A DNA stretch of 64,000 nt. It comes from an uncultured Gammaproteobacteria bacterium. GTDB taxonomy: Bacteria > Patescibacteriota > Microgenomatia > UBA1406 > HO2-37-13b. A program made the translations under genes and the position numbers. Below are positions 14,354 through 30,888 of the stretch, in pieces. The DNA is taken from the NCBI GenBank assembly GCA_964422025.1, contig CAYQYZ010000002.1:3765-67764 (forward strand), read 5' to 3'. Under the pieces are notes generated by a model, which was not told the origin of the DNA, searched no databases, and was given only the letters and a program-made list of their open reading frames with translations. The number at the start of each line of letters is the position of its first letter. The first letter of the stretch is position 1.

Positions 14354-14429
14354 ACGACATATTATACAACACGATCCTATGATTGCTTTTTTTCTTGGAA
14401 ACATTCATAATGATAGTACGATAAGACGT

Positions 14430-14942
14430 ATGAAAAAATACCACACATTACTTGCATACTACAGTTTGATTATTTCAACACTATTAATTGTATGGTCAAC
14501 AATTTTTGTATCAAAGCATAGTGGATATATACTAGCGCTTTTAATCCTTCCAATTAGTGTGTATTTTTGGATACTTGTGACGGGTAAATTACCTCATGTA
14601 CATACCGAAGACAGTTCTTCAGATTCAAGTCAGACCATTTTTACCTTTTTACTTACCATTGCCTTTATTATTAGTTCCGCGAGTATTGTTCTGTATATTG
14701 CTGTTCTTGGATTACAACCAAAAAGTTCGCAGCAAACCCAAACGCTTCCCGATCTAACGAAGCTAGAAAAACAAATGCAATCAATTAAACACAATAATGA
14801 ACTATTGGAGAAGGTGGTTATTAAGCTTGACATACTTGAAACCAATATTAATAAGCTCGATGTGGAAACATCAATTCCTACGAGCAGCCCTGAAGCATCT
14901 ATGGAAGCCCGGATCAAAGAATTATTAAAAACATCGAATTAA
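14430..14942 (+). CDS. Small membrane protein (3 TM) with C-terminal coiled coil; paralog family member 1
   Basis: Hydrophobic helices. It shares the motif YILALLILPISVYFWILV with the next two genes. The start MKKYHTLL at 14430 is preferred over the track start 14379, which would overlap leuS. Confidence 0.6.
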   Translation: MKKYHTLLAYYSLIISTLLIVWSTIFVSKHSGYILALLILPISVYFWILVTGKLPHVHTEDSSSDSSQTIFTFLLTIAFIISSASIVLYIAVLGLQPKSSQQTQTLPDLTKLEKQMQSIKHNNELLEKVVIKLDILETNINKLDVETSIPTSSPEASMEARIKELLKTSN

Positions 14943-14945
14943 ATT

Positions 14946-15497
14946 ATGCGTTTAGTTGAAAAGATTTTCTTTGTTTATTGCACAGCACTTGCACTTTTTT
15001 TCACAGTCGCAGCTACGGTCGTACTGTTTAAAGGTAACAATTATATATTAATACTTTTTATACTTCCAATTCCTGGCTACTTTGTATATTATATGGTTCT
15101 TGCACTTGCAAAACGAAGATCTTTACCTCAAGGCTCAACTTCACGAACGTTTATTTTAATGGTAATACTATGTCTATGTTTATTAACATCCTATGCGGTA
15201 AGTAAAATATACATTCAGCCAAATGCGAGCAAATCACAAGCTAGGTGGCAAAAATTAATACAGCCAAGCATAACTCCTAGTAAGAACTTAGGGTACATTG
15301 AAGTTGATCCTGAACAAGCATCAGATTCGTGGGTCAACCTGCGCAATAACCCTTCTACAGAAGCGGCAGTAATTGGAAAAGCAACAGTTGGAAAAAAATA
15401 CTCTATATTAGTGATACGATCAAATTGGATTAAAATCCAAATGGACGCATCAAGTTCGGCATGGATTAGTAAAAAATTTATAAAAAATACACAATGA
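14946..15497 (+). CDS. Small membrane protein (3 TM) with C-terminal bacterial SH3-like domain; paralog family member 2
   Basis: YILILFILPIPGYFVYYMV motif. The C-terminus GYIEVDPEQASDSWVNLRNNPSTEAAVIGKATVGKKYSILVIRSNWIKIQ resembles SH3b. Confidence 0.65.
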   Translation: MRLVEKIFFVYCTALALFFTVAATVVLFKGNNYILILFILPIPGYFVYYMVLALAKRRSLPQGSTSRTFILMVILCLCLLTSYAVSKIYIQPNASKSQARWQKLIQPSITPSKNLGYIEVDPEQASDSWVNLRNNPSTEAAVIGKATVGKKYSILVIRSNWIKIQMDASSSAWISKKFIKNTQ

Positions 15498-16147
15498 AAA
15501 AGATAATACTAATTTATAATGTGGCAATAATAACGGTCGTTACATTTATAGGATTCATAGAATCAACGTCATACGCACAACTTATAAGCAGTATTATTTT
15601 CTTTCCGCTCACGATTTATTTCTGGAGGATGATCGTTCCTTCAACTGCAAGCACACCAAATGTTGCTTTAAAAAAAGCAGCTGTACTTAAGAAAGCAAAA
15701 AAGATTGATGCTAAACCAGAAGATGCCCCTATTAAACTCACTGAGTTAGATGAGATAAAAGATACGGACGTAGATAATAACCGACGTATGTTTTTACGAC
15801 TTATTGGATCTGCGGGCGTGTCTGTTTTTATTCTTTCAATATTTACAGGCAAAGCTGAAGCGGCATTTTTTGGAAGTAACCCTGGTCCTGGTACTATTGG
15901 AGTCAAAGATTCATCGGGAACACTTATCGATCCATCCGAAAAACAACCAACCGATGGATACAACATTTCACAAGTAGATGATGAAATACCTTCATACTAT
16001 GGTTATGTAAATAAAACAGGCGCTTGGTACATTGTAAAAGAAGATGCTACGGGAGCATATAGATATGTGAAAGGAGCAAGTAGTTTTTCAACTAATTGGA
16101 CAAATCGCGCTAGCTTAACATATGACTATTTTGATTCTATTTTTTAA
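15494..16147 (+). CDS. Membrane protein: 2-TM paralog module + internal twin-arginine-like signal + globular C-terminal domain
   Basis: SSIIFFPLTIYFWRMIV motif, then DVDNNRRMFLRLIGSAGVSVFILSIFTGKAEA-AFF at residues 93-123 (nt ~15770-15862). ATGA overlap with the upstream gene. Confidence 0.65.
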   Translation: MKKIILIYNVAIITVVTFIGFIESTSYAQLISSIIFFPLTIYFWRMIVPSTASTPNVALKKAAVLKKAKKIDAKPEDAPIKLTELDEIKDTDVDNNRRMFLRLIGSAGVSVFILSIFTGKAEAAFFGSNPGPGTIGVKDSSGTLIDPSEKQPTDGYNISQVDDEIPSYYGYVNKTGAWYIVKEDATGAYRYVKGASSFSTNWTNRASLTYDYFDSIF

Positions 16148-16177
16148 GTTTTTATGCTATAGTAACTAAATATTTCT

Positions 16178-16672
16178 ATGCCAACTAATCAGACTCTTTT
16201 CGTTACCGACATTAATGGCTCAGTTAGAGAATGTTTAAATATTTCACATGACACGACATACCCGGGATACGTGAAGGTGGAATTTTCTTCTAACAGAAAT
16301 GCTCCAGCGACATATTTTGAGTGGTACCCGGTAGATGATTTTATTCAAAATAATCCAACACTTGCCCATATTGTAAAGAAAGGCAAGCAACCAGCAGATG
16401 ATGATTTGGGTACAGTAACCCGCGCTACATTTACTACAATCACTGATAAGACCAAATCATGGCAACCAGGTATTTACAAAGGTATTCCCCTATGGATTTC
16501 TCGAGGAATTGGCGAAGGACAAGTTAGAAATGTAACAGATAATACGCATAATTCGCTCACTATCGATGAAAAATTTGACATTAAACCTGACAAAACATCG
16601 CAATATGTTCTATCGTATAATGTACATAATCCAACCGTTATGAATAATGCATTACCAGAAAATGAAAATTGA
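16178..16672 (+). CDS. Hypothetical cytoplasmic protein (164 aa)
   Basis: Intact ORF in the same-strand cluster. No signal peptide and no motif I recognise. Confidence 0.55.
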   Translation: MPTNQTLFVTDINGSVRECLNISHDTTYPGYVKVEFSSNRNAPATYFEWYPVDDFIQNNPTLAHIVKKGKQPADDDLGTVTRATFTTITDKTKSWQPGIYKGIPLWISRGIGEGQVRNVTDNTHNSLTIDEKFDIKPDKTSQYVLSYNVHNPTVMNNALPENEN

Positions 16673-17111
16673 ATATTTTTTAGGCGGAGCAGCTGGATTG
16701 GTTATTTTTGGATACGTTTTAGATATCCTTGCTGGACCACTTACGTTAGTTATTAATTCCCCGTTTGATTTTCTTACGCCGGTTATGCTTTCTACCTATC
16801 CATTCACGGCCGTATCGGTTGGCGCAAAGACAGTTGCCATTTTTGTTAGTACGGTAATGATTGTAACTACTGCTGGGGGCACTAAGTATAGTTTGCAATC
16901 AATAATTGTTTTTATTATGGCAGCACTTATGGAACTTTTTGCAATTCAACAAATAGCAACTCACGGCAATAACGTTTCTATGCAGTGGAATTTAGCATTT
17001 GCATTCTCTGGCGTATTACTTGTAGTTCCTGCAGTTATATATATGATTATGGCGATGGTAAAATCTGCACATAAAAATTTAGTGGCAGATCCGTACGAAT
17101 CTGACTCGTAG
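16662..17111 (+). CDS. Hypothetical polytopic membrane protein (~4 TM)
   Basis: MKIEYFLGGAAGLVIFGYVLDILAG... with four hydrophobic segments. The ATG at 16662 overlaps the upstream stop by 11 nt (track start 16647). Confidence 0.6.
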   Translation: MKIEYFLGGAAGLVIFGYVLDILAGPLTLVINSPFDFLTPVMLSTYPFTAVSVGAKTVAIFVSTVMIVTTAGGTKYSLQSIIVFIMAALMELFAIQQIATHGNNVSMQWNLAFAFSGVLLVVPAVIYMIMAMVKSAHKNLVADPYESDS

Positions 17112-17195: not shown

Positions 17196-20100
17196 ATGGC
17201 AACAATTACAATCGATCGAAGTATTAATGCAGATGATGCATTTGCAATGTCTGCGGGTATCACATTTGTTGCTCTCGCATCTGGATCTGCATCATACCAA
17301 ACTCAACCGACAGGTATTACCACGTGGACAACAGCGACTATTGTTCAATCCTCTGCTTGGCAATCTGTGTGTTATGGAAACAATATTGTTGTTGCAGTAA
17401 GCTCCACATCTGGAACAATCGCTGCTACTTCCCCGGCTGGTGTCACCGCGACATGGACATTACGGACAATGCCCGCAACAGCAAGCTGGTATGCAGTTGC
17501 ATATGGCTTATCGAAATTTGTCGCAGTGACAGGTGGTGCTTCAACTGTTGGAGCTTATTCGATTGACGGAGCAAAGTGGACACTCACGGGTGCACTGACA
17601 ACAAGCGGAGACTGGAGAGCCCTGACTTTTGGAAATGATCGCTTTGTTGCACTTTCGTACAACAGCACAAACACGAACTATTCAACAAATGGTACAACGT
17701 GGAGTGCAGGAGGTGCACTTCCTGCGACTCGTAACTGGACATCGGTGACCTATGGAGAGAGCACCTTTGTCGCAGTTGCCTCAGGAACTGATAAAGGAGC
17801 ATACTCGACAGACGGCGGAGTCAACTGGACAGAAATGACGATGCCATCATCTTCAAACTGGAATTCGGTCACGTATGGAAACGGAACGTTTGTCGCTGTA
17901 AGTAATACGTCGGGGACTATCGCAGCATATTCTGCTAATGGTATCGCTTGGACTTCTGCAACACTCCCAAACACACGAACCTGGGTTGCTGTCGCATTTG
18001 GGAATAACCTATTCACAGCAATTGCCAGCACTTCAACAACAGGAGCAGCATTTAGCTATGACGGTGTCAGTTGGAGTGGAGGCTCCATTGCAACTGTTTC
18101 GCAAGCAATTAGCTGTATGTGCCACACGCCCACCACCTGGAACTCAAACGACACACTTGTTATTACAAACAATTCAACTCTCACTGTCAATACAGACCAA
18201 AGTAAATTCTGGGGCTTCATAACCCTCACGAACGGAAAACTGCTCATTACAAATTCATCTACATCCACGGGTATCCGCTTTACCATGGGTCGCGTATCTG
18301 GGGCAGCTGCCGCGACTATCACTCCGGGATCAGGTATTGGAGATATTGAAATTACGGGAGACTGGATCGAGTTAGGTACCGGAGATGGAAGCTCTGGACA
18401 AACTATGACAGCCCCCTTCTCAGACTACATTGCGGCGCTCTGGGTCGAAACGGCATCTGGTTCGGGAATCTATGAACAGTGGCTCAATGCAACCGGCTCA
18501 TACAGCGACGCGTCCCCTATTCTCCGCGAAGGATTTGCAGCAATCGGGTCAGGTAGACGAGGTAAATTTTTCATCCAACAGGCAAATGCATCTCCGTATG
18601 GACCAACTATCCTCAACGGGACAGATGGAAGTATCGCACAAAAACTCATTACTGTTGACTCAACCACAGGACTCTATCCAGGCGCTTCGATTCTTGGCCC
18701 CGGAATCCCTGCAAACACGGTCGTGAATCGGGTCATTTCATCCACCCTCCTTGAAACAAATGCCATCTCCACGACTGAACTCTCCCCTGATTGGACCTCA
18801 GTCGCATATGGAAACAGTGTTTACGTGGCAGTGTCCGGTACCAGCTCAAACATAGCAGCAACATCTGCTGATGGGGTTACCTGGACCAAACGAACACTTC
18901 CATTTGTGGCTAACTGGAACTCAGTTTGTTATGGAGCAACGAGTGCCTTGTTTGTGGCAGTCTGTTCAGATGTGACGACAACTGGAGGAACTGCCATTGG
19001 GTCGAGATTTTGTGCAACAAGCCCTGATGGCATTACGTGGACAAGGCGTGCTATTCCACTCCCTTCTGTACTTGCTCAAAACTGGACATCAGTTGCTACC
19101 AACGGCACAAGCTTTGTCGCAGTTGGATCACTTGCAGACGGAACCGCCACGACAGTAGGTGCGTATTCTGCTGACGGGATCACCTGGTCAGCATCAACCA
19201 TGACCTCAGCAATATGGCGTTCAGTCACCTATGGTGCTGGTGCGGCCAACAGATATGTTGCCGTTTCAAGCACGACTATTTCTAACTGGGACGCGGACGG
19301 AACAGGCACATGGACAAACGGTGGTGCTATGACATCCGCAAACTATTTGAGCATCGCATGGAATGGAACGCGCTTTTATGCAGTTTCTGGTTCAAGCACG
19401 GTCAGTATGTGGTCCACAGATGCTACATCTTGGACGACGGGTGCTGTACTGAACAACTCGACGAGTCGCGGAGTCGCTTGGGACGGAACAAACTTCGTAA
19501 TCGTTTCAACAACAAACTCAGTTAACACATCCAGAACCCCTGCAGGTACGACGGGGACGCTCACCAACACAACCATGGCAGCAGCCAATGCAAACAACTG
19601 GACGGCGGTGTGCGCAAATGGAACAACGTTGGTAGCTGTATCATCCTCATCAAACTTGAGAAGTGCAGCGTTGACCTCCACAGACTCTGGAGCCAACTGG
19701 ACACTTCAAACGGGAACTCCTCTGGACGTATCACTTACCTGTTATAACCCGTATGTATCCCAACTTTCAAATACAGTCGAATTTGGCGACAACATCAATG
19801 GAAATAAGGTTCCCTCAGGGGCAAAAGTCAGATGTCCCAACATCATGTTTACATCTGCAGTGCCCGTCAACATCCAAACAGCATCCTCCATCGTCGGAGC
19901 AAACATGGTCATGACTGCAGGAGGATCACTTGTCGCCAATACCTGCTTGTTTGATGAGTCATACAACACCTTTAATCAGGCAGAAACACTTTCCCTCACA
20001 AATGTTGGTTTCTCTATCCCACCACTCATCAATGAATCGTATGGTGTCACGTTTAATAGTGTTGGCTTTGCCCTTGAGCCAGTCCGCCGGTATTACACCT

Positions 20101-23100
20101 ACTCAGCGACTATTGGTTCGGATGGCTGGTTTACTCGCGATAGACGTTACGGAGCTGGAACGACCACTTGGACATACTTGAATAATGCAAGCATCACTGA
20201 TTTTAATTACTGCGTTGGCTCGCCAAAAGCACTCCAAGTGGCAGTTTCTTCAGTAACCGCCCCTGCGCCAATGTTAACCATCTCGTACACACAAAACTCA
20301 ACGTGGAGCTATGTCCGCTTTTACGCTCTCAATTGTGTCGCTTCCTTTCAAGATGCATTTAACTTCCTCACGAACTTTAATGACAACACGATGGAGCACC
20401 TGGAAATGTACGGTGTTGCCCCCATGCTGTTTCAGACTTCAAGCGGAAATACGTTTACAGATGTACGCATTGCAGAAGATATGTTTAATGGATATAGAAG
20501 CTTTCCGACCACGGGTGCACGCATCGGCAATGATCCAACTGCGCAGGCTAAACTCGTCGATGACACCAAGTACTATCTGAAAGTCCGAACTTTTTATGAC
20601 TGGAACAATCTTTCAAATTATGCAGAAGGCCGAACAGTATCTGCAACGCCGTTTATTGGAAGTAAATTTTTCCCAGCAATATTTGGAGCAATAAATACCG
20701 CCACTCGTGCCGTCACTCTGACATGGATCAGGCGTGACCCTACATCCAGCGGTGCAGCGGGAACGACGACGTATCAAATATTTAGAAGCACTTCACCAGG
20801 CTTTACTCCCAGCTCTGCAAACAGAATATTTGACACTTTGACCGTCGCAACCGTTTCATACCTCAACGGTTTTGTCGCGACCATAACCGCCACAGCGTCG
20901 CCCGTAAGAACAATTACGTTTGCTGCAGCAGGTAGAACAATCACCCTTGGTGGTGCTGGTGCAGGAAGCTTTACAACCGCAGGATTTGTGGCTGGAGGAA
21001 ATGTGGTTGTAGCCGGAACTGTTTCTAACAATGGCACGTACACCATACTATCTTTTACAGCGACTGTCATCACCCTGACCACCAATCACACCAATTTAGT
21101 CAATGAAACTGCTCCAAACGGCGCAACTCTCGATGGTCAACCACCTGTAAACGGCACAAGTTACTACTATAAATTACGCAAGCACGATGCAATCCTCACG
21201 GGTATAACAAGTGCTTCAGGGACCGTCGCAACGACTACCCTCACAACAGCTGGAAACTTTAATACGGGTCTTGGGTCAGTCATCAACCTTCAAGGAATAA
21301 GCGGGCAAACCAAAATCAGGATTCCCGTCAGATCTACCACCAACTTTATGGCAGCGAACATTTTCCCTGGCCTCACCCTTGCAGGAACAGGTATCGGATC
21401 AGGGGCAAAGGTTGTGAGCATCGACACCGCATGGCAGATAACCGTCGATGTGACCAATTCATCGACGTTTGTTGGGACAACAGCCACTTTGGGGTTAGCC
21501 AACGGGACAGCGCCTGACAACATCTACGTTGTTGGGCCCGGAATCGCCCGCCCAACACGCGTGGCATCTATCACAAACTCGACCACTTTAGAGGTTGATA
21601 CCGCATTTATTGCAACCCTTTCTGCTCAGGCGATATTTTTTGAATATGGGACAGACAGCGCAGAAGTTGAAGTTACCCCAAGCGGTCCGACTACTGCCGC
21701 ATTTAACTTCCTTACTCAATCAAATGACTTCACCCATGCCAACTGGGTAAAAACAAATCTCACCGCGACAGCAAACCAAGTCTCGGGACCAAATGATATT
21801 GGCTTTGGTATCGCCGCAGCTCCAACCGCCGACCGACTCGTTTCGACCGGCCCAACAGCAAAGGCTGTACAGACTATCACCTCATACCTGGAAGTCGGCG
21901 CTATCTATACTTTCTCCGTATATATCAGATGTGACGCTCATCATTATTCCCAAACTGTCTCGGGAAAGATTTCTATCAATACAACAGTTGCCACGGATCA
22001 AGCATTTACAGCATCAGGAGTCTGGCAACGAATCTCAGCTACTTTTACCGCAACCGCCGTCACGCATGAATTTACCATTCAGATGACAACAGAGGGAAGT
22101 TACATCTATGCCTCAAGTGCTCTGGTTAATCAGGGCTCCTCCGCTCTTGTCCCCATCACCACCACCACCGTAAAAACAGCTGTGGCAAGCGGTGGACGCA
22201 CACTGACTTTTGCATCAGGTATCGACGGAGCCAATACCATTACCGCCTCATCAGGCGACTTCACAACAGCACCTGCTTTTGCAATTGGAGACAGTATTAT
22301 TGTGCAAGGAACATCTGATAATGACGGCACCTATGTATTATCTGCTGTAACAACTACTGTATTGACAGTGACTCCAGCACAACCCCTAGTTACGGGTGCG
22401 GGAGCACAATCATCTGGCTCCATCGTCGGGTCTGTTCTTGCCTCAGCAGCCCAAGAGCTTACCTCTGCACTTGCGTGGTGCCGAGCAACTGGAGGTAACA
22501 CGTCAAATCAGGGTATTGAAGTTGCTTTTGCTGCATTGCCAACTGGATCATTTTGGACTGAGCTGTATGTTGGGACGACAGCAGGCTTTACACCATCTTC
22601 TATTAATCGCGTTGGTTATACTCTTAACTTGCTTGGAGCTTCAACCTCCTTTTACCTCCTCAACTCCAATAACAACATTATCGACACGCTCGCTCAGGAA
22701 GGATACGGCGGATATTCTGGTACACGAGTATTCTTGCGAGGTGCTTCGAACAACAAATTCCTCGATTGGAACATTGACTTTAACTATGGTGCTGTACCTG
22801 CTATCGGAGATGTCGCAAATCTTTCCAACGACAATATCTTTGACGACTTCACCGTCAAAAACTTTAGAAACCTCAACACCTCACCGTTTATTTCTATTAA
22901 TGATAGTAGTGGACTTACCCTTCAAAACATCACCATTGAGCAAGCAAATGATATCCCCTATTCACTTCAATCATTAAACACCATTCTCAAGGGTGTGACG
23001 GGAGCCAATGCCGCTCAAGCAACGAACGCCACAACATATTTCTTCGGAGCAGGCGCATTTGCAACTGACGGACTTGCCATCGCCTATCAAGCCGTGTATG

Positions 23101-25967
23101 ACAACATCTTTTATGAACTGTACCATTCGCCCACAACCGGTGCACTTCACATGCTTTTCAACGCAAGCTCATCTGACACACCACCGTATACTATCGTCTC
23201 GGGCACACCAGCATTTGGAAACAACGGCCGTTTGTATTTGCGTACTGCTGGTGACTCGATCGAATACACCTGGCCATACCGTATTTATGGTATTTCCAGC
23301 TTCCGCGATATCATCCTCAAAAAAAATGGATTGGATCTGGGCTCAAGCTTGGACGGACTTGAATCACTTCTGGTTGAATTCAAAATCGATACGGGTACAG
23401 GAACAACGTACGGCGCATACCAAACTGCTACCCCAGCCAACCTTGCAGCCACATCTGTTTCCACCACCACCGGATTCCTTCTGAAAATCCGCATTACCGC
23501 CCAACCCGGAATGCTTTTTTCTACTCAAACAAATGCCTTTGTTGTCGGAGAAGAAATTGAAGGAACTACGTCTGGCGCAACAGCTACCGTTGATGATGTG
23601 CACAACCTAACAACAACAACGGGATGCGTCATATTGTCAAATATCACCGGCTCATTTATTCCCACAGAACTTGTTCGTCGTAATTCTGACAACCAAACGC
23701 GCGCAACGAACGTCGTAACCAACACGCAGTTCGCCCTGTTCCCATCCTTTAACAGCTATATTGACGGTTTGCAGATTTTTACCAATACCGTTGGCCCTGG
23801 TGATTATCCTGGGAGAATCGTGGACATTGTTCTGACCAACGTAACCACCGGAAGTACCTATTATGTATATAAAACGTCGGGAGGGTTACTTCTGGGCTCT
23901 GGGACAGCCAGTGGCGCGACAGTCACCATTCCAAATGTGGCGTATGTGACTGATTTTGGTATCACCATCCGTGTCCGCAAGTCCAGCGCCGTCACAAAGT
24001 ACCTTCCATTTGAAACGCAGGCTACAGTAACCGTTGCTGGTGCAAATGTATTTACATCGCAAATCGAAGATGCTATTGTAGCAGCCTCCTACGGTTCAAT
24101 TGGTAGTGACTTTACGATAAATTACACGCAAAAGCGTATCTATCACTCATCGGGAAGCTCTGTGTACTCCGTGAATGCTTTGTATTCATATCTACAAGAT
24201 GTGTTTGATGAAGAATCACAATTAGATGACACCGTACCAATGTCCGCACAAACGCCAACCGAATACACGCTCATCAACGGATGGTTCATGGATGATGAGT
24301 CATTTAAATACCTCACGGGTGGGGCTGTCCAAACATCGGGCTGGACGGGTGGTGTTATTCGCATGAAAGCATATGATGCGACCGGTGCTGGTACAGCGTT
24401 TGGATCGTCAGATATCGGTAAAGTGATTACGGAGACAGATAGCGGTGACACGGGAACCATCCTTGCCTATGATGAACGCACAGCCACTGAGATCGGCTAC
24501 GTGTGGATCCGCCCTGATACTCTGGCTGACACGTTTGCCGATGTAAACTCTGCCTACACCGTAGCGACAAGCTCCGCAGCCGGCGTCTTTACTGCAGCCA
24601 GCAGCACTGGTGAAACGATTTGGTCCAATATATTCTCGCTCGGTACGCTTGTAAGTGGTTCTACACTAGATGTCTGGCAAAATGATGTCCAAATCACTCC
24701 ATGGTGGACCAGCGGGCATATAGATATCTTGGTGAAGGTAAAAGAAATGGGAACAGAAACAGATAGCGGCAACATCACCGTTCTTGCCCGTAAATATTCT
24801 ACTCTCTATGACCATTTTGTCATCGATGCATCTACCGGTCGCAACCCGGTGCCTTTGGCGGCTTTTGCCGATGGAAATAATGAAACAGCATCGGGCACCG
24901 TAGCCGGATATTCAGATATAACATTTGATTTTGGGGCTTCAAGTCAAGATCTTGGGAATGGCAACGGAAGCCAACCGTATGATGTGGTCATTGACGGAGC
25001 CGGTCGACCACTCACTGAAATATATGAATACCTCAAATATGTAACGCGTTCAGGCTCTGGAACAACCCTTAACGGTGTTAACGGTGAGTTCTATATTGCG
25101 GTCGGCGACTACCGTTTTAACTACGATACAGAAGCATCTGGACCATTTGTGGAGGGTGAGCGAATTAACGGTAGCGGCGCCGTGTATGGCTATCTTGTGT
25201 CGCTTATTGACAGCGGAGCAACGGGCACCATGACGCTGCGCAATGTTCATGGAAGTTTTGCAGATGATATGGCAATCTCAGGAGTAACATCAGGTGCAAC
25301 AGCGGCCGTTAATGGAGCCCCGGAAGCAATTACTGCTTCTAAGCAAGCGCCTTTCGGAACCTTTGCCGGAGGGTCATTTTTCGGAGCCCGCGGCGTATTC
25401 CTAACTAATATGGATATTGCCGACGCCAATAACTATGAATTAATCGATGCAACGAACACCAGTCAAGTTCCACCTGCCACCGTAAACGTCCTGGTAGGAG
25501 GCTTAGTCTCCGGTGACCGAGTGAGCGTTTTCCGAACCACCGGAGCAAACGAAATCATCAATAAAACATATCTCGCTTCTCACGCCACTACCAACTCAGC
25601 AGCAACCACCGCATGGGAAGCAACCGGAGCGATCCCTGCCGACACACCAGCGGCGGGCTTTATTCGTCTTGTAAAGACCGCATCAAGTACTGAAGAGCGC
25701 TTAGAGTACACATCGTGGACGGGTGCTATTTTTACACTTGCAGGGGCGCATGCTGGCGGTTATGGCACCGGCGACACCGCGTATGTACCGTACATTGACG
25801 AACAAGCCAGCAGTACAAGTATTTCCAAGAGTGTTACCTATGTTTCTGATCGTACGGTGATGACCCGAGTTCGAAAAGTTGGCATTCAACCATTCACCAC
25901 CACCGGATCACTAACATCAACGGGTTACTCCGCAACAGCAGTAAGGACCGCAGATACCATCGCATAA
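17196..25967 (+). CDS. Giant (2923 aa) Thr/Ser/Gly/Ala-rich protein: two beta-propeller repeat arrays, beta-helix-like and FN3-like segments, tail-fibre-type jelly-roll module
   Basis: Single uninterrupted ORF. It has about 7+7 repeats of W-x-[SA]-V-x-[YF]-G-x-x-x-F-V-A-V with [ST]-x-[DN]-G-x-x-W (residues ~40-300 and ~530-830). The segment NFLTQSNDFTHANWVKTNLTATANQVSGPNDIG..ADRLVSTG..YTFSVYIRC.. recalls phage tail-fibre carbohydrate-binding modules. No N-terminal signal peptide is present. Confidence 0.9.
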   Translation: MATITIDRSINADDAFAMSAGITFVALASGSASYQTQPTGITTWTTATIVQSSAWQSVCYGNNIVVAVSSTSGTIAATSPAGVTATWTLRTMPATASWYAVAYGLSKFVAVTGGASTVGAYSIDGAKWTLTGALTTSGDWRALTFGNDRFVALSYNSTNTNYSTNGTTWSAGGALPATRNWTSVTYGESTFVAVASGTDKGAYSTDGGVNWTEMTMPSSSNWNSVTYGNGTFVAVSNTSGTIAAYSANGIAWTSATLPNTRTWVAVAFGNNLFTAIASTSTTGAAFSYDGVSWSGGSIATVSQAISCMCHTPTTWNSNDTLVITNNSTLTVNTDQSKFWGFITLTNGKLLITNSSTSTGIRFTMGRVSGAAAATITPGSGIGDIEITGDWIELGTGDGSSGQTMTAPFSDYIAALWVETASGSGIYEQWLNATGSYSDASPILREGFAAIGSGRRGKFFIQQANASPYGPTILNGTDGSIAQKLITVDSTTGLYPGASILGPGIPANTVVNRVISSTLLETNAISTTELSPDWTSVAYGNSVYVAVSGTSSNIAATSADGVTWTKRTLPFVANWNSVCYGATSALFVAVCSDVTTTGGTAIGSRFCATSPDGITWTRRAIPLPSVLAQNWTSVATNGTSFVAVGSLADGTATTVGAYSADGITWSASTMTSAIWRSVTYGAGAANRYVAVSSTTISNWDADGTGTWTNGGAMTSANYLSIAWNGTRFYAVSGSSTVSMWSTDATSWTTGAVLNNSTSRGVAWDGTNFVIVSTTNSVNTSRTPAGTTGTLTNTTMAAANANNWTAVCANGTTLVAVSSSSNLRSAALTSTDSGANWTLQTGTPLDVSLTCYNPYVSQLSNTVEFGDNINGNKVPSGAKVRCPNIMFTSAVPVNIQTASSIVGANMVMTAGGSLVANTCLFDESYNTFNQAETLSLTNVGFSIPPLINESYGVTFNSVGFALEPVRRYYTYSATIGSDGWFTRDRRYGAGTTTWTYLNNASITDFNYCVGSPKALQVAVSSVTAPAPMLTISYTQNSTWSYVRFYALNCVASFQDAFNFLTNFNDNTMEHLEMYGVAPMLFQTSSGNTFTDVRIAEDMFNGYRSFPTTGARIGNDPTAQAKLVDDTKYYLKVRTFYDWNNLSNYAEGRTVSATPFIGSKFFPAIFGAINTATRAVTLTWIRRDPTSSGAAGTTTYQIFRSTSPGFTPSSANRIFDTLTVATVSYLNGFVATITATASPVRTITFAAAGRTITLGGAGAGSFTTAGFVAGGNVVVAGTVSNNGTYTILSFTATVITLTTNHTNLVNETAPNGATLDGQPPVNGTSYYYKLRKHDAILTGITSASGTVATTTLTTAGNFNTGLGSVINLQGISGQTKIRIPVRSTTNFMAANIFPGLTLAGTGIGSGAKVVSIDTAWQITVDVTNSSTFVGTTATLGLANGTAPDNIYVVGPGIARPTRVASITNSTTLEVDTAFIATLSAQAIFFEYGTDSAEVEVTPSGPTTAAFNFLTQSNDFTHANWVKTNLTATANQVSGPNDIGFGIAAAPTADRLVSTGPTAKAVQTITSYLEVGAIYTFSVYIRCDAHHYSQTVSGKISINTTVATDQAFTASGVWQRISATFTATAVTHEFTIQMTTEGSYIYASSALVNQGSSALVPITTTTVKTAVASGGRTLTFASGIDGANTITASSGDFTTAPAFAIGDSIIVQGTSDNDGTYVLSAVTTTVLTVTPAQPLVTGAGAQSSGSIVGSVLASAAQELTSALAWCRATGGNTSNQGIEVAFAALPTGSFWTELYVGTTAGFTPSSINRVGYTLNLLGASTSFYLLNSNNNIIDTLAQEGYGGYSGTRVFLRGASNNKFLDWNIDFNYGAVPAIGDVANLSNDNIFDDFTVKNFRNLNTSPFISINDSSGLTLQNITIEQANDIPYSLQSLNTILKGVTGANAAQATNATTYFFGAGAFATDGLAIAYQAVYDNIFYELYHSPTTGALHMLFNASSSDTPPYTIVSGTPAFGNNGRLYLRTAGDSIEYTWPYRIYGISSFRDIILKKNGLDLGSSLDGLESLLVEFKIDTGTGTTYGAYQTATPANLAATSVSTTTGFLLKIRITAQPGMLFSTQTNAFVVGEEIEGTTSGATATVDDVHNLTTTTGCVILSNITGSFIPTELVRRNSDNQTRATNVVTNTQFALFPSFNSYIDGLQIFTNTVGPGDYPGRIVDIVLTNVTTGSTYYVYKTSGGLLLGSGTASGATVTIPNVAYVTDFGITIRVRKSSAVTKYLPFETQATVTVAGANVFTSQIEDAIVAASYGSIGSDFTINYTQKRIYHSSGSSVYSVNALYSYLQDVFDEESQLDDTVPMSAQTPTEYTLINGWFMDDESFKYLTGGAVQTSGWTGGVIRMKAYDATGAGTAFGSSDIGKVITETDSGDTGTILAYDERTATEIGYVWIRPDTLADTFADVNSAYTVATSSAAGVFTAASSTGETIWSNIFSLGTLVSGSTLDVWQNDVQITPWWTSGHIDILVKVKEMGTETDSGNITVLARKYSTLYDHFVIDASTGRNPVPLAAFADGNNETASGTVAGYSDITFDFGASSQDLGNGNGSQPYDVVIDGAGRPLTEIYEYLKYVTRSGSGTTLNGVNGEFYIAVGDYRFNYDTEASGPFVEGERINGSGAVYGYLVSLIDSGATGTMTLRNVHGSFADDMAISGVTSGATAAVNGAPEAITASKQAPFGTFAGGSFFGARGVFLTNMDIADANNYELIDATNTSQVPPATVNVLVGGLVSGDRVSVFRTTGANEIINKTYLASHATTNSAATTAWEATGAIPADTPAAGFIRLVKTASSTEERLEYTSWTGAIFTLAGAHAGGYGTGDTAYVPYIDEQASSTSISKSVTYVSDRTVMTRVRKVGIQPFTTTGSLTSTGYSATAVRTADTIA

Positions 25968-26623: not shown

Positions 26624-26824
26624 ATGGATAAACATTATGTTTGTATTGGCGGATGTGGACTGGTTGCCGACGCTATGATTAAGTGCAATAGTGTAGGTTG
26701 TTGGCGTGCCCGAAATCCGCTTGGAGAATGCTTTTGTGAGGATTTCAAACACGATGATTTCCACAAACAGTATGGAATCAACAATAAAGAAAGTGAGAAT
26801 TCTAATATAACAAATTCGGATTAA
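26624..26824 (+). CDS. Small Cys-rich protein (66 aa), putative metal-binding
   Basis: YVCIGGCG..IKCNSVGCWRARNPLGECFCED: seven Cys in the first 40 aa. Coding status is uncertain. Confidence 0.45.
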   Translation: MDKHYVCIGGCGLVADAMIKCNSVGCWRARNPLGECFCEDFKHDDFHKQYGINNKESENSNITNSD

Positions 26825-26948: not shown

Positions 26949-28922
26949 ATGGCAACCATTAGTTCAGATTTTACAATTGATTACGTTAATAAACGTGTCT
27001 ACCATTCAGCAAATAATAATGTATACACCGTAAACGCACTCTATTCCTATCTACAAGATACCTTTGATGAACTTGCCCAGATGGATGACACCATCCCGAT
27101 GTCGGCACAGACACCAACAGATTACACCCTCATTAACGGATGGTTCATGGACGAGGAATCATTTAAATATCTCAAAGGAGGAGCCATTCAAACAAGCGGA
27201 TACAACGGAGAAATTCAAATTCTTCTGCTTGATGGGACATATGTAAGCGCTGTATCTGGAGACATCGGTAAAACAGTACTTGATGATGCTGTCGCTTCCG
27301 GCCAGCTCCTTGCATACGACAACACTCTGCAAAAATGGTGGATCCGGCATACAGGAACGATAGCAAATAACTCTGTCATGACAATCTCCACCGGTACCGG
27401 TGCTGGAGATGCGCTTGGAGCATCTGTTACCGGAGAAAACCTATACCCAAACGTCTATACTCTTGGATCTATCGAAGAAGATGACAGTCAACAGATTTAC
27501 ATTATTCAAAATGGATCACGACTGACCGAGTGGTGGCCAGAATCAGGATCCGGAACGCAGCAGATTGATGTACTTATCAAAGTCAAAGAGGCAGGTACCG
27601 AAATAAATAGCGGTGCTATCACTGTATTTCTTAGACATTACCCAAGCGGCGGAAATGCCGACTTGTACGACCACTTCGGAATCGATCTTACCGCTGGAGG
27701 CCGAAATGCGGTTCCTCTTGCTACCTCTCCTGACTTAAACAACTTGACTGCCACAGCAACCGTATCAGGATACAGTGACGTAACAATCGCTTTCGTAAAT
27801 GGAACCCTCACCTATACGGGCATGTCAGCTGCTTTTACGAACCTTGAGACTGTCACACAAGCCTCAAGCGGTGCAACTGGTATCTATCTTTACTCCACCA
27901 CATCAAGCGGAGCAGGAACCATGACGCTCGGAAATGTTGTTGGGACTTTTGACGGGACAAACGTTATTACTGGCGGAACCTCAGGATCAACCGCAACATC
28001 CTCTTCAACACTCACCAATGCCTACACGATGGATAAAAACTTCGACCAAGGATCTTCATATCCGTATTCTGTTATTGTTGGATGTGCAACCCGACCTTTG
28101 ACAGAAGTATATGAATATCTCAAGTACATCACCCGTGTTGGATCAAGCTACAACACCTATCCAACAGCAAAGGCCCAAGGTGGAGCAATAACATTTGCAG
28201 CGCTCACAGGACAACAATACATTCGAGCCCATGAAGATAATCAGACATCACCTGATAATACGTTTTCACCAGCCAAGGCTTCCCCATTCGGTACCTTTGC
28301 AGGAGGAAAGCTCTTCGGTGCGCAAGGTGTGTGGGTTGAAAACATGGATGCAGCAGACATTCAAAACTTCCAGCTTATTGACTCAGACGGCACAACACGA
28401 ACTCCACCGAACAAACAAAATGTCACTATTACGAATCTTCTTTCCGGAGACCGCGTCTCAGTTTTCCGAACATCTTCTGGGACAACAATTGATAAGGCAA
28501 TGTATTCCCTTGCTGCAAGTAATGATTCCGGCGATAGTACAATCATTGTTACGGGAAGCATATCTGTTGATACACCTTCTACCGGCGCGATTAGACTTGT
28601 AGATACAAGCGATCTAACAGCAACGCGAGAAACACGATACACGTACACATCATGGTCTGGATCGACATTTTCAGGCGTATCTCCTGTTCTTGATCGCACA
28701 TACACAGCATCTGATGATAAAGCATACGTACCGTTTATCGATGAACAGGCATCGAGCACATCAATTTCTGTACAGGTCATTTATTCTACAGATCGATCAA
28801 TTCTCCTCCGTGTCCGACGAAAAGCATCTGTTGCCATTCTGCCATTTGAAACAACGGGAACATTCGGATCAACTGGATTTTCAACATCTGCAATTAGAAC
28901 ACCTGATACAATCGTTACTTAA
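26949..28922 (+). CDS. 657-aa paralog of the C-terminal ~620 aa of the giant protein
   Basis: SDFTIDYVNKRVYHS..VYTVNALYSYLQDTFDELAQMDDTIPMSAQTPTDYTLINGWFMDEESFKYLKGGAIQTSG compares with giant residues ~2306 on (SDFTINYTQKRIYHS..VYSVNALYSYLQDVFDEESQLDDTVPMSAQTPTEYTLINGWFMDDESFKYLTGGAVQTSG). The C-termini also match (AYVPFIDEQASSTSIS.. vs AYVPYIDEQASSTSIS..). Confidence 0.9.
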   Translation: MATISSDFTIDYVNKRVYHSANNNVYTVNALYSYLQDTFDELAQMDDTIPMSAQTPTDYTLINGWFMDEESFKYLKGGAIQTSGYNGEIQILLLDGTYVSAVSGDIGKTVLDDAVASGQLLAYDNTLQKWWIRHTGTIANNSVMTISTGTGAGDALGASVTGENLYPNVYTLGSIEEDDSQQIYIIQNGSRLTEWWPESGSGTQQIDVLIKVKEAGTEINSGAITVFLRHYPSGGNADLYDHFGIDLTAGGRNAVPLATSPDLNNLTATATVSGYSDVTIAFVNGTLTYTGMSAAFTNLETVTQASSGATGIYLYSTTSSGAGTMTLGNVVGTFDGTNVITGGTSGSTATSSSTLTNAYTMDKNFDQGSSYPYSVIVGCATRPLTEVYEYLKYITRVGSSYNTYPTAKAQGGAITFAALTGQQYIRAHEDNQTSPDNTFSPAKASPFGTFAGGKLFGAQGVWVENMDAADIQNFQLIDSDGTTRTPPNKQNVTITNLLSGDRVSVFRTSSGTTIDKAMYSLAASNDSGDSTIIVTGSISVDTPSTGAIRLVDTSDLTATRETRYTYTSWSGSTFSGVSPVLDRTYTASDDKAYVPFIDEQASSTSISVQVIYSTDRSILLRVRRKASVAILPFETTGTFGSTGFSTSAIRTPDTIVT

Positions 28923-28924
28923 TT

Positions 28925-29482
28925 ATGACATCAGATACGTTTACTGGCTCCAAACCGAAAGCTGTCCGTGGACCAAATGGACGGTTCGTAAGTAATAAGG
29001 TACCAGAGCCTCCTTTGGAAGAAGCACCACAAGACTTGCATGACCAAGCAGCTACTATTGATCCACCCGTAGAAGTCATATCTGAAACACAGCATATTTT
29101 CTTCAATGATCTTTCATATTATGGCGAATATATTAGACGCGTATATAAAAATAGTGAGTGGTTTTTTGTCATTGAAGACCTTTTTCCCTTAGCGAATATT
29201 ACAGAACCGAATAAAGTTATCGACGCTTTTGAACATTCTCCCTATTACACTGATTCCATTGGTACAGATCTTTTCGAAATCGAGATTCCTAAAAATAATT
29301 TAGGACAGAGCCACTTAACCATTGGTAACAAAAAAACCATTCTAGCTTTTATTCAACTGTTACGATCAATGAGCCACTTCTTCCCGGGCAGATTTCCTGA
29401 ATGGATAGAAGAAACCACCCACGTAGATTTTGCGGAAGCTGACGCCAAACGAAAAAGCATTCTCAATCAAAATCTTAATTAA
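28925..29482 (+). CDS. Hypothetical protein with Bro-N/KilA-N-like segment
   Basis: FFNDLSYYGEYIRRVYKNSEWFFVIEDLFPLANITEPNKVIDAF fits the Bro-N pattern (vRvv..dge.wFva.Dva.aLg...) by eye only. Confidence 0.5.
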   Translation: MTSDTFTGSKPKAVRGPNGRFVSNKVPEPPLEEAPQDLHDQAATIDPPVEVISETQHIFFNDLSYYGEYIRRVYKNSEWFFVIEDLFPLANITEPNKVIDAFEHSPYYTDSIGTDLFEIEIPKNNLGQSHLTIGNKKTILAFIQLLRSMSHFFPGRFPEWIEETTHVDFAEADAKRKSILNQNLN

Positions 29483-29519
29483 TATTTCTCTGCGCTAACA
29501 TGGTAAGAAAGATACATAT

Positions 29520-30830: not shown

Positions 30831-30888
30831 AGCTTGATACCCTATTGAAGTGCTTGCATTTTTATTCGGTGTTTGATACTCTCAAGTG

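Follow-up and report, generated by a model that had tools for sequence, protein, structure and literature searches.

Three Paralogous Membrane Proteins Are Encoded in One Operon

The window analyzed here, a 64,000-nucleotide stretch of DNA from an uncultured ultra-small CPR (Microgenomates) bacterium, contains an operon of five genes, A, B, C, D and E:

Gene A, 14430–14942, plus strand: 170 aa; hairpin module (residues 1–57), long hydrophobic TM3, coiled-coil tail.
Gene B, 14946–15497, plus strand: 183 aa; hairpin module (residues 1–57), TM3, C-terminal SH3b (residues 130–180).
Gene C, 15494–16147, plus strand: 217 aa; hairpin module, charged linker, internal Tat-type signal, small beta domain.
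Gene C residues 1–50, 15494–15643, plus strand: hairpin module, from two alignments; AF2 helices at residues 2–22 and 27–47.
Gene D, 16178–16672, plus strand: soluble protein, 164 aa, two small beta barrels.
Gene E, 16662–17111, plus strand: 4-TM membrane protein; the ORF opens at 16647, and read from MKIEYF the protein has 149 aa.

The gene A ORF opens at 14379, and its orthologs start with MKKYH or MRKYH. Genes B and C overlap in an ATGA, and P0323 is the 149-aa form of gene E.

The initial annotation of this region had described three consecutive genes with a common N-terminal TM module, and the strings that it quoted, YILALLILPISVYFW, YILILFILPIPGYFV and SSIIFFPLTIYFW, are present in the translated ORFs. 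A module HMM was built from residues 1 to 50 of 118 gene C homologs and searched against the window ORFs. It matched gene A with an E value of 4e-6 and, after one HMM iteration with B left out of the training set, gene B with an E value of 1.6e-4; apart from A and B it recovered no further ORF in the window, the next best E value being ∼7. By pairwise BLASTP, A matched B (2e-6) and C (0.003), and no similarity between B and C was detectable by this method. As judged by these sequence comparisons, the N-terminal two-helix hairpin is common to A, B and C beyond chance and the three are paralogs, which bears out the original description.

The domains assigned beyond the module held up in part. 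The SH3b domain of B is matched by Pfam SH3_3 (PF08239) with an E value of 3e-8 and 34.1 bits, above the gathering cutoff of 27. The assignment of A to a coiled coil fits the window's own gene, in whose outside part only the coiled coil remains, but not its orthologs, which usually combine a coiled coil with an SH3b tail. The sequence of A contains no twin-arginine motif and that of B no Tat consensus.

Gene C is a member of a large Microgenomates family that lacks annotation and comprises 1400 representative clusters; 366 homologs were recovered at ∼100% coverage. Conserved positions of the hairpin module in this family include Y8, G20, F36, P38, Y42 and F43. The AF2 model of the protein has a pLDDT of ∼90 for the hairpin and falls to low confidence across residues 122 to 131. 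The linker that follows the hairpin is of low complexity and spans 27 to 75 residues in the 118 aligned homologs, reaching several hundred in a 479-residue reading frame from another locus (L035).

An Internal Tat-Type Signal in Gene C

Downstream of the linker, gene C contains the following feature:

Gene C residues 94–123, 15773–15862, plus strand: Tat-type signal; D-x-N/D, R97-R98, x-F-L-R/K, h-region, basic c-region, A121-x-A123.

In the gene C protein, D92-V-D-N-N precedes R97-R98-M-F-L-R (R97-R98 encoded at 15782–15787), followed by the h-region L-I-G-S-A-G-V-S-V-F-I-L-S-I-F (residues 103–117, 15800–15844), then T-G-K and A121-E-A123, after which the sequence continues A-F-F. The stretch is thus present as first described, although the residue numbering given for it was off by one. 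The observation that no in-frame start codon separates the TM module from the motif also stands: ATG, GTG and TTG are absent in frame between codon 46 and R97. Gene C is the sole ORF of the window that combines an RRxFL motif with an h-region and AxA, as had been noted, and a scan of the 1217 ORFs of C-family loci detected no further Tat-like signals.

In all C-family members examined, the hairpin and charged linker lead into DxD(R/K)RxFLK, after which come a short hydrophobic stretch rich in Gly and Ser and then K/R. In the alignment of 118 homologs, R98 and F100 are each found in 118 of 118 sequences, and position 97 has R in 112 sequences and K in the other 6. Position 101 is L or I in 116, with V in the other 2, and position 102 is K or R in all 118. 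Other basic positions in this alignment swap K and R freely, and all six Arg codons are in use at both positions of the RR pair. The motif [RK]RxF[LIVM] occurs in 38 of 38 C-like ORFs and in 0 of 39 module proteins outside the C family. It is always internal, beginning at residue 97 in gene C and at a median of residue 106 among 140 distant representatives of the wider family. Orthologs lacking the RR pair, which the initial annotation had regarded as speaking against a signal, do occur in part: the 140 representatives carry RR (78), KR (61) or RK (1). KR in place of RR is known in natural Tat signals but is rare.

Homologs with a plain N-terminal Tat signal would point to an origin by fusion, and all short candidates of this kind that we examined failed. 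One (P0194, locus L041) proved to be a 270-aa ORF containing two modules, another (P0226, L044) has an upstream start and the module, a third (P0265, L043) is an ORF cut by the contig end, and in a fourth (P0232, L042) an in-frame stop lies between module and signal. The apparent N-terminal versions of the motif therefore proved to be gene-call artefacts.

Profile searches gave TIGR01409 as the sole recurrent NCBIfam match, in 13 of 29 C members at E≤1 (best E value, 7.9e-4); gene C itself scored 12.4 bits, under the curated cutoff of 16.7. PF10518 matched 2 of the 29 homologs. Published descriptions of Tat signals list S/T-R-R-x-F-L-K, a Gly-rich h-region no shorter than 12 residues, basic residues in the c-region and AxA (PMC7317946). 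The C family shows all of these features, AxA in the RR subfamily only. At the putative cleavage site, position −3 is A or T and position −1 is A or G in 118 of 118 close homologs. AxA is missing from the KR subfamily, where Pro often stands beside the site (..RRGVPFFGS, ..RRVEVPFFGR, ..TRKFGTFFGR), so cleavage would not be a family trait.

The Third Segment of C Is Shorter and Appears Less Hydrophobic than Those of Its Paralogs

The uncharged stretch of the third segment is 15 to 18 residues long in C, compared with a mean of 20.6 for the TM3 of the paralogs. With a simple Hessa-2005 sum, a position-independent approximation, the RR segment of C scores +1.6 to +1.7, its uncharged stretch giving +1.63, and the paralogs' TM3 −0.56. 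On the same approximate scale the hairpin helices of C score −0.24 (TM1) and +1.0 (TM2); with TM2 and the RR segment about equally weak in hydrophobicity, the hydrophobicity argument is a relative one. The four residues after the segment contain a mean of 1.9 K/R in C vs. 1.05 in the paralogs, and one or two K/R occur at residues 118 to 121, the c-region, in 118 of 118 homologs. Low hydrophobicity and trailing positive charge are the two features that were shown to make Sec pass a segment on to Tat (Tooke et al. 2017, PMC5449189).

Either two or four TM helices precede the motif in every homolog examined. Among C homologs, K+R amount to 1.8 per 4 aa at the N terminus and 0.23 per 8 aa in the TM1–TM2 loop, and the linker is rich in them. 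These positive-inside counts support a cytoplasmic location of the twin-arginine motif; a position in an outside loop, which had been named as evidence against a Tat signal, is the opposite of what they predict. The plan predicted for A, B and C begins with an N-in hairpin; a segment in the cytoplasm and a third one in the membrane follow, and a small domain lies outside. Where the outside domain is of SH3b type, it would likely bind the wall.

The Putative Exported Domain of C Is Predicted to Be a Small, Cofactor-Free Beta Domain

The remainder of the protein is a compact domain:

Gene C residues 124–217, 15863–16144, plus strand: predicted exported domain; invariant AFFGSxPGPG start, then a 4-strand beta domain.

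The structure prediction that the initial annotation had proposed for this part of the protein gave an AF2 pLDDT above 90 over residues 150 to 217. The domain is Cys-free in 113 of 118 homologs and has no conserved His, and Pfam and NCBIfam searches with gene C returned no match to a cofactor family. The domain thus appears cofactor-free, and the usual reason for Tat use is missing.

Compared with the SH3b tails of the paralogs by hhalign, the C domain gave a probability of 87% and an E value of 3.6e-6. It has no match in Pfam, SH3_3 included, and no Foldseek match to SH3 structures; a structure search of the PDB with gene C returned nothing below an E value of 0.1. What had been called a globular domain is therefore itself probably a divergent SH3b-like domain, as judged from the hhalign comparison. 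Its closest relative, reached through the protein P0268, is an uncharacterized stand-alone phage protein (BLASTP, 2e-15) that sits in a phage structural module; a BFVD match was obtained at 1.5e-5. An IMG/VR scan with the C alignment recovered no family member, and the neighboring genes contain no further copy of the domain. Since the stand-alone phage homolog is without any signal, the C domain evidently can fold in the cytoplasm.

Gene Neighborhood and Linkage to tatA/tatC

Downstream of the operon lie several large genes and a Tat cluster:

Giant gene, 17196–25967, plus strand: 2923 aa, without an N-terminal signal.
Large signal-less proteins, 26949–30830, plus strand: P657 (26949–28922), P185 (28925–29482) and P436 (29520–30830, Beta_helix).
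Tat cluster, 30886–32650, plus strand: TatA (30886–31149), TatA (31151–31285), TatC (31294–32046), TatA (32089–32232), PrsW-like (32186–32650).
Further TatA paralog, 34900–35040, minus strand: Pfam TatA_B_E, 2.5e-13.

Within the Tat cluster, Pfam identifies TatA_B_E (PF02416; 6.6e-10 and 8.2e-17), TatC (PF00902; 6e-38) and PrsW (1.3e-7), and the TatA-like ORF at 32089–32232 was recognized by translation only. A Tat cluster with expanded TatA, reported previously, is thus confirmed as TatC with four TatA-like copies ∼15 kb from gene C. Seen from C, 12 of 40 genome loci have tatA/tatC no more than 10 kb away, and tatC adjoins C in two (L039 and L083). Seen from tatC, C is nearby in just 2 to 3 of ∼13 long CPR loci, which rules out a universal linkage. 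The proposed co-occurrence with tatC is thus seen as co-localization, and the linkage is lineage-specific.

The constant partner of C is gene E, which in 31 of 37 loci is the next gene downstream of C, in the same orientation, and which has no family match in Pfam or NCBIfam. The giant gene, whose adjacency the initial annotation had stressed, does not hold this place, as the large downstream genes vary. The C-terminal ∼620 aa of the giant protein are paralogous to the 657-aa gene at 26949–28922, and its sole Pfam match is one stretch (EPTP, 23 bits) that fails the E-value limit on its own. Gene D (53 homologs; AF2 pLDDT, 87.7) is near C in ∼13 of 40 loci, often but not always in the operon. 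Foldseek linked it only weakly (E values of 2e-3 to 0.04) to phage tail tube and tailspike N-domains, and Pfam, NCBIfam and Foldseek gave nothing informative for D or E. In many loci the gene immediately before tatA/tatC is P436-like; sequence searches of the PDB with P436 and P657 returned nothing.

We also considered, and rejected, the idea that the region is a prophage or mobile element. No PHROGs match was obtained for A, C, D, E, P657, P185 or P436, and P436 has no tblastn match in 50,697 phage records. The neighbors are housekeeping genes (ATP synthase, NDK, PilD, LeuRS), and synteny is conserved across genera.

C Is Probably a Dual Sec/Tat Substrate

The core of the initial annotation, namely three paralogs of which one has a genuine internal twin-arginine signal, as in Rieske proteins, was supported by every computational test that we ran. 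The paralogy, the conservation and specificity of the motif, the topological logic and the synteny described above lead us to consider it probable that C is a Rieske-like dual Sec(YidC)/Tat substrate with an exported, cofactor-free 94-residue beta domain, its third segment being a Tat-type signal where A and B have an ordinary anchor. Sec/YidC would insert the third segment of A and B, a plain hydrophobic anchor; in the C family a Tat-type signal would have taken its place, consisting of DxDRRxFLK, an h-region of 15 to 16 Gly/Ser-rich residues and then K/R. By analogy with the actinobacterial Rieske proteins, Sec/YidC would insert the hairpin of C cotranslationally, and Sec would then refuse the third segment, which is weakly hydrophobic and trailed by positive charges. 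Folding of the C-terminal beta domain, 94 residues long, would take place in the cytoplasm, and the TatA/TatC translocase, encoded in the same gene neighborhood in many lineages, would carry the domain across. After transport the segment would stay as a third anchor; in the RR/AxA subfamily, which includes the window's C, signal peptidase may instead cut it. The paralogs are probably held together in one envelope complex by their shared hairpins and by the constant 4-TM neighbor E. The dedicated membrane platform proposed earlier may exist, an idea helped by the second, fused module copy in 14 of 38 C-like ORFs.

Rather unlikely, in our judgment, is that C is an ordinary three-TM protein with a Sec/YidC anchor, made without Tat, in which DxD(R/K)RxFLK is a cytoplasmic juxtamembrane motif retained for some other role, for example as a positive-inside determinant or a contact with E or lipids. 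The frequency of KR in distant representatives (61 of 140), the score of gene C under the TIGR01409 cutoff, the lack of a cofactor in its domain, the absence of tat linkage to C from most tatC-side loci and the fact that A and B, built on the same plan, clearly manage without Tat all fit such a protein. A mere positive flank, however, would swap K and R at both positions, and R98 and F100 are invariant; moreover, the motif is the canonical Tat consensus residue by residue. With fewer residues and lower hydrophobicity than the TM3 of the paralogs, and with K/R behind it, the segment of C disfavors Sec insertion, and tatA/tatC recur in the same operon-like array as C.

It is distinctly unlikely that C is a tethered secretion precursor, the hairpin and linker forming a membrane-bound pro-region that brings a cleavable Tat signal to the membrane and from which, once Tat has acted, signal peptidase I, cutting at A121-x-A123, frees a 94-residue protein beginning AFFGS into the medium or onto the cell surface. 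The conserved small residues at −3 and −1 of the close homologs would suit such a cut, as would an h-region of 15 residues, the length of a signal peptide and short for a permanent anchor, and the low AF2 confidence at residues 122 to 131. Yet the KR subfamily, without AxA and often with Pro near the site, indicates that cleavage is neither ancestral nor general, and the invariance of AFFGSxPGPG far exceeds the needs of a cleavage site.

In a broader proposal that we regard as very improbable, the Tat-targeted, phage-related domain of C would be both carrier and anchor in a CPR system for Tat-based display of phage-derived surface fibers on a hairpin/SH3b envelope platform. That the C domain binds the giant protein, P657 and P436 as signal-less, fiber- or spike-like partners from its own operon that have folded in the cytoplasm, takes them through an enlarged multi-TatA translocase and then anchors them is exceedingly improbable: signal-less large proteins do lie between C and tatA/tatC in many loci (a P436-like one directly before tat), there are 3 to 4 TatA paralogs, a phage structural module includes a homolog of the C domain, gene D weakly resembles tailspike N-domains and P436 has a beta-helix, but binding of the C domain to large proteins is putative, the large genes vary by locus and are missing near C in some, searches gave no phage or PDB homolog of P436 or P657, and a 2923-residue cargo is far above known Tat cargo size.

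To our knowledge, very few protein families depend on both Sec and Tat for assembly into the membrane, and all of these have metal cofactors. A metal cofactor is the accepted reason for the use of Tat by dual families. If C is indeed a dual Sec/Tat substrate, a large unannotated CPR family would share this architecture with a tiny, cofactor-free beta domain, and the dual pathway would serve other purposes, for example a fast-folding domain, an oligomer or a carried partner. The family would then also be a likely principal client of the poorly understood Microgenomates TatA/TatC systems. The sister paralogs, with the same hairpin and an ordinary third anchor, would be natural variants for reading the rules of Sec-to-Tat hand-over, for which established E. 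coli reporter assays are suited.

Comparison with Known Systems

The closest parallel is provided by the actinobacterial Rieske proteins (Streptomyces coelicolor Sco2149 and Mycobacterium tuberculosis QcrA), which are 3-TM proteins inserted by both Sec and Tat (Keller 2012, PMC3471235; Tooke 2017, PMC5449189). Like these, C has two N-terminal helices, a cytoplasmic loop that ends in a conserved RR before the last segment, positive charges trailing that segment and a C-terminal globular domain predicted to lie outside. Unlike them, C, which has no homology to Rieske proteins, carries a 94-residue beta domain without an Fe-S cluster or other cofactor ligands, a possible AxA site, a low-complexity linker of variable length and, in the wider family, frequent KR; it occurs in CPR bacteria that have a Tat system of TatA and TatC only.

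Other dual Sec/Tat families include Sco3746 (heme/MoCo, 5 TM), a polyferredoxin (5 TM) and the metallophosphoesterase YkuE (4 TM) (Tooke et al. 2017, PMC5449189). C shares with them TM helices, an RR motif and a final TM with trailing positive charges; those proteins, in contrast to C, carry metal cofactors. Because candidates in that study were picked by cofactor domain (Tooke et al. 2017, PMC5449189), the C family would have been skipped.

With respect to SH3_3 cell-wall-binding domains, B carries a bona fide copy and the A and B orthologs end in SH3b, whereas the C domain is closest to an uncharacterized phage protein and resembles the paralog tails by hhalign (87%).

The phoD-tatAd-tatCd genes of Bacillus subtilis encode a minimal TatAC translocase, without TatB, beside its substrate. 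PhoD is an enzyme with a plain, N-terminal, cleavable signal in which an acidic residue precedes the RR (..FDRRKFIQGAG). Unlike that of PhoD, the C signal is internal, and the tat linkage is found in part of the lineages only; as in the phoD-tatAd-tatCd arrangement, C and tatA/tatC occur in one neighborhood and an acidic residue stands before the RR.

Genes A, B and C are paralogs within a five-gene operon

Five closely spaced genes occupy positions 14430 to 17111 of the + strand:

14430-14942, +, gene A, small membrane protein, 170 aa
14946-15497, +, gene B, small membrane protein, 183 aa
15494-16147, +, gene C, small membrane protein with twin-arginine motif, 217 aa; its start overlaps the stop of gene B in ATGA
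16178-16672, +, gene D, 164 aa
16662 or 16647 to 17111, +, gene E, 149 aa from 16662, the form of its database homolog

The giant gene (2923 codons) follows gene E at 17196-25967. Because the upstream genes encode LeuRS, in divergent orientation, and, farther up, ATP synthase, NDK, prepilin peptidase and an M16 peptidase, the operon region is ordinary chromosome. The exact C homolog is labeled "Microgenomates group bacterium", and its relatives belong to Roizman-, Ames-, Levy-, Davies-, Woese- and Gottesmanbacteria. In several loci a conserved gene of ~143 aa (N-terminus MASHIYNVKQAAKILGLSTNTTYKYLNEGRI..) precedes the module genes (L014 5907-6338, L015 2186-2614, L019 1937-2368); by eye its product looks like a helix-turn-helix protein, a candidate that may regulate the operon.

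Pairwise BLASTP matched A to B (2e-6 over 101 residues) and A to C (0.003 over 40 residues) and gave no match between B and C. We searched a profile of the N-terminal hairpin module, made from residues 1-50 of 118 C homologs, against 3731 ORFs from the window and 40 related loci. It matched gene A with an E value of 4e-6 and, after one iteration, gene B at 1.6e-4, B being absent from the training set; no other ORF of the window scored better than E ~7, despite the many other membrane proteins encoded there. The initial annotation had described a common N-terminal transmembrane (TM) module in these three genes and a Tat-like motif in C; this observation is confirmed. The module was present in 78 ORFs of the window and loci, comprising 38 C-like ORFs (14 with two modules in tandem fusion), one further C-family member with the motif (in L020) that the FFGSxPG filter had missed, and 39 A/B-like ORFs. 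In the last group the module is followed by a long hydrophobic third helix and then by (a coiled coil and) an SH3b domain, which in gene B is a bona fide Pfam SH3_3 match. Since comparison of profiles aligned the C-terminal domain of C to the A/B-like SH3b tails over 54 columns (probability 87%, E 3.6e-6), A, B and C are probably homologous across the whole plan and not in the module alone.

The twin-arginine motif of C is conserved

We retrieved 366 word-indexed homologs of C with ~100% coverage, and, at E<=1e-3, residues 94-217 as sole query gave 1400 representative clusters. C is not covered by any family of Pfam or NCBIfam. All strings quoted in the initial annotation were found in the sequence, and the Tat-like stretch is indeed present, but its numbering was off by one, the actual residues being 92-126.

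Conservation of the motif among 118 C homologs
D94: 117 D
D/N96: 117
R97: 112 R, 6 K
R98: 118 R
F100: 118 F
Position 101: 116 L/I (91 L, 25 I), 2 V
Position 102: 107 K, 11 R

After position 102 come LIGSAG(L)(S/T)(L/V)F(L)(F)S(I)F, T-K/R-K/R and A-x-A/G, and the stretch closes with an invariant AFFGSxPGPG. In Tat signals an S/T-R-R-x-F-L-K consensus is followed by an h-region rich in Gly/Ser, a c-region whose basic residues serve "Sec avoidance", and an AxA site (PMC7317946). The motif of these 118 homologs agrees with this consensus residue for residue, and the h-region, c-region and AxA site are also present in them. The second arginine is constant, with K and R swapped freely at the other basic positions; all six Arg codons were seen at both positions across 40 loci, indicating selection at the protein level. 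The sole family to recur across C homologs was the TIGR01409 Tat-signal profile, matched by 13 of 29 with a best E of 7.9e-4; gene C of the window scored 12.4 bits, below the 16.7 cutoff. The window and the C loci together have 1217 ORFs of >=80 aa, and no further Tat-like signal was found in them, in line with the earlier claim that C is the only Tat-substrate candidate in the window.

The twin-arginine motif is internal and follows one or two hairpins

There is no ATG, GTG or TTG in frame from codon 46 to R97, as had been noted from the sequence. In each C homolog whose complete sequence was read, one or two hairpins (two or four helices) precede the motif, and distant members with KR in place of RR likewise carry hairpins there. 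One homolog, a 479-residue ORF with two hairpins (L035 6576-8012), has a Ser-rich spacer of >200 residues before RR, so that linker length is evidently unconstrained. The seemingly N-terminal signals were set aside: those of L041 and L044 are wrong gene calls, that of L043 is cut off by the contig end, and L042 (736-nt contig; 1-200) has an in-frame TAA between the hairpin module (..LLAYFAFKILPRR) and the KR signal, which could reflect an error in sequencing, a pseudogene or a gene that is naturally split.

The charge distribution of C obeys the positive-inside rule; the family averages 1.8 K+R in the four N-terminal residues and 0.23 in the eight-residue TM1-TM2 loop, and the linker holds 12. 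In the AF2 model a disordered linker joins the hairpin (pLDDT ~90) to a helix at 91-118, and residues 150-217 form a beta domain modeled with confidence.

Third hydrophobic segment, C family versus A/B paralogs
Uncharged stretch: 16.1 residues (15-18) versus 20.6 (15-32)
Best 19-residue Hessa sum: +1.63 versus -0.56
K/R in the following four residues: 1.9 versus 1.05

In Rieske proteins, Sco3746, polyferredoxin and YkuE, low hydrophobicity and C-terminal positive charges cause Sec to release the last helix (PMC5449189). The C family has 1.9 K/R after its third segment; the Hessa sum of +1.63 for the segment comes from a scale that is a position-independent approximation and on which TM2 of C is also weakly hydrophobic.

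The C-terminal domain lacks cofactor ligands

Residues 124-217, the predicted exported domain, are without Cys in 113 of 118 homologs and have no conserved His, so no metal cofactor is expected. Foldseek found nothing in the PDB and, in BFVD, matched the domain to an 89-residue uncharacterised Caudovirales protein (A0A6J7WTL6, E 1.5e-5). A stand-alone 92-aa homolog (39% identity over 77 aligned positions, BLASTP 2e-15) lies at L045 8064-8342 on phage contig IMG/VR UViG_3300009175_001422, flanked by a major head gene (phrog_371) and a baseplate-like gene (phrog_20556), and the cellular proteins P0261 (two tandem copies) and P0268 carry the domain without a signal. Cytoplasmic folding of the domain is evidently possible, which we infer is a plausible reason for the use of Tat.

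Close family members have A/T at -3 and A/G at -1 of the putative cleavage site. The KR subfamily (motif D-I-D-K-R-x-F-L-K; L083 3069-3701, L041-L044) ends in ..RRGVPFFGS, ..RRVEVPFFGR or ..TRKFGTFFGR; these sequences lack AxA and often contain Pro, so cleavage would be optional at best. By analogy with Rieske proteins, a retained third anchor is the more likely family-wide state.

Neighboring genes and linkage to tat

Among 40 genome loci, E directly follows C in 31 of 37 and D lies near C in ~13 of 40. D is soluble and is modeled as two small beta barrels (pLDDT 87.7); the motif WISRGxGEGQ..N..P..SQY is invariant in it. Foldseek gave D weak matches, at E 2e-3 to 0.04, to phage tail-tube and tailspike N-terminal domains. 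For E, which has four TM helices, no relatives are known outside the Microgenomates clade. Beyond the giant gene lie P657 (26949-28922, 657 aa), a paralog of the last ~620 residues of the giant protein, and P436 (29520-30830, 436 aa), a beta-helix protein; all three lack an N-terminal hydrophobic signal and have no phage or PDB homologs. A 66-aa Cys-rich ORF (MDKHYVCIGGCGLVADAMIKCNSVGCWRARNPLGECFCEDF..) lies at 26624-26824, between a methyltransferase gene and P657. In many loci tatA/tatC is directly preceded by a P436-like gene or by the last ~40 residues of such a gene, which are conserved. The site of these genes between C and tat invites the speculation that the large proteins might be carried by C as Tat hitchhikers.

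The tat region of the window contains:

30886-31149, 31151-31285 and 32089-32232, +, TatA-like ORFs
31294-32046, +, TatC
32186-32650, PrsW-like intramembrane protease gene
34900-35040, -, fourth TatA-like ORF

The multi-TatA and PrsW layout recurs in L014, L019, L022, L030 and L039. In 12 of the 40 genome loci tatC lies <=10 kb from C; 11 of these have both genes on one strand and 10 have tatC downstream of C, and a P436-like gene usually precedes tatC. C adjoins tatA/tatC in L039 and L083, in the latter ~570 nt upstream of tatA-tatC; in several loci without tatC the flank is taken up by giant genes, as in the window. For a reverse scan we took as starting points 64 metagenome loci whose TatC is related, ~13 of them with long flanks; C lay <=10 kb from tatC in only two of these (L059, L083), and also in L046, which is closely related to the window (80% identity in TatC). 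Given this weaker result, the linkage is real but lineage-specific. The Tat cluster with expanded TatA copy number reported near C stands. In L048 (6612-7823), with no C present, a 403-aa protein whose N-terminal Tat signal (..TRRDFFKVAGAAAAGA..) is of the classical kind lies 4 kb from a related CPR tatC, which indicates that related CPR translocases have other clients in some lineages.

Comparison with known dual Sec/Tat proteins

The main rival explanation makes C a plain three-TM protein, inserted by Sec/YidC, whose juxtamembrane motif is conserved. The KR variants, the missing cofactor and a tat linkage that is incomplete speak for it; we nevertheless regard it as unlikely. The evidence best supports C as a dual-pathway protein of Rieske-like plan that carries its Tat signal internally, and we consider this reasonably probable. 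In known dual Sec/Tat families a cofactor domain is a defining feature, whereas the C family has none, and Tat signal peptides are N-terminal, whereas the C-family signal is internal. Because these two features are absent, we liken the C family to the described families but do not place it in them: it is described as working like dual Sec/Tat proteins while being a member of no described family.
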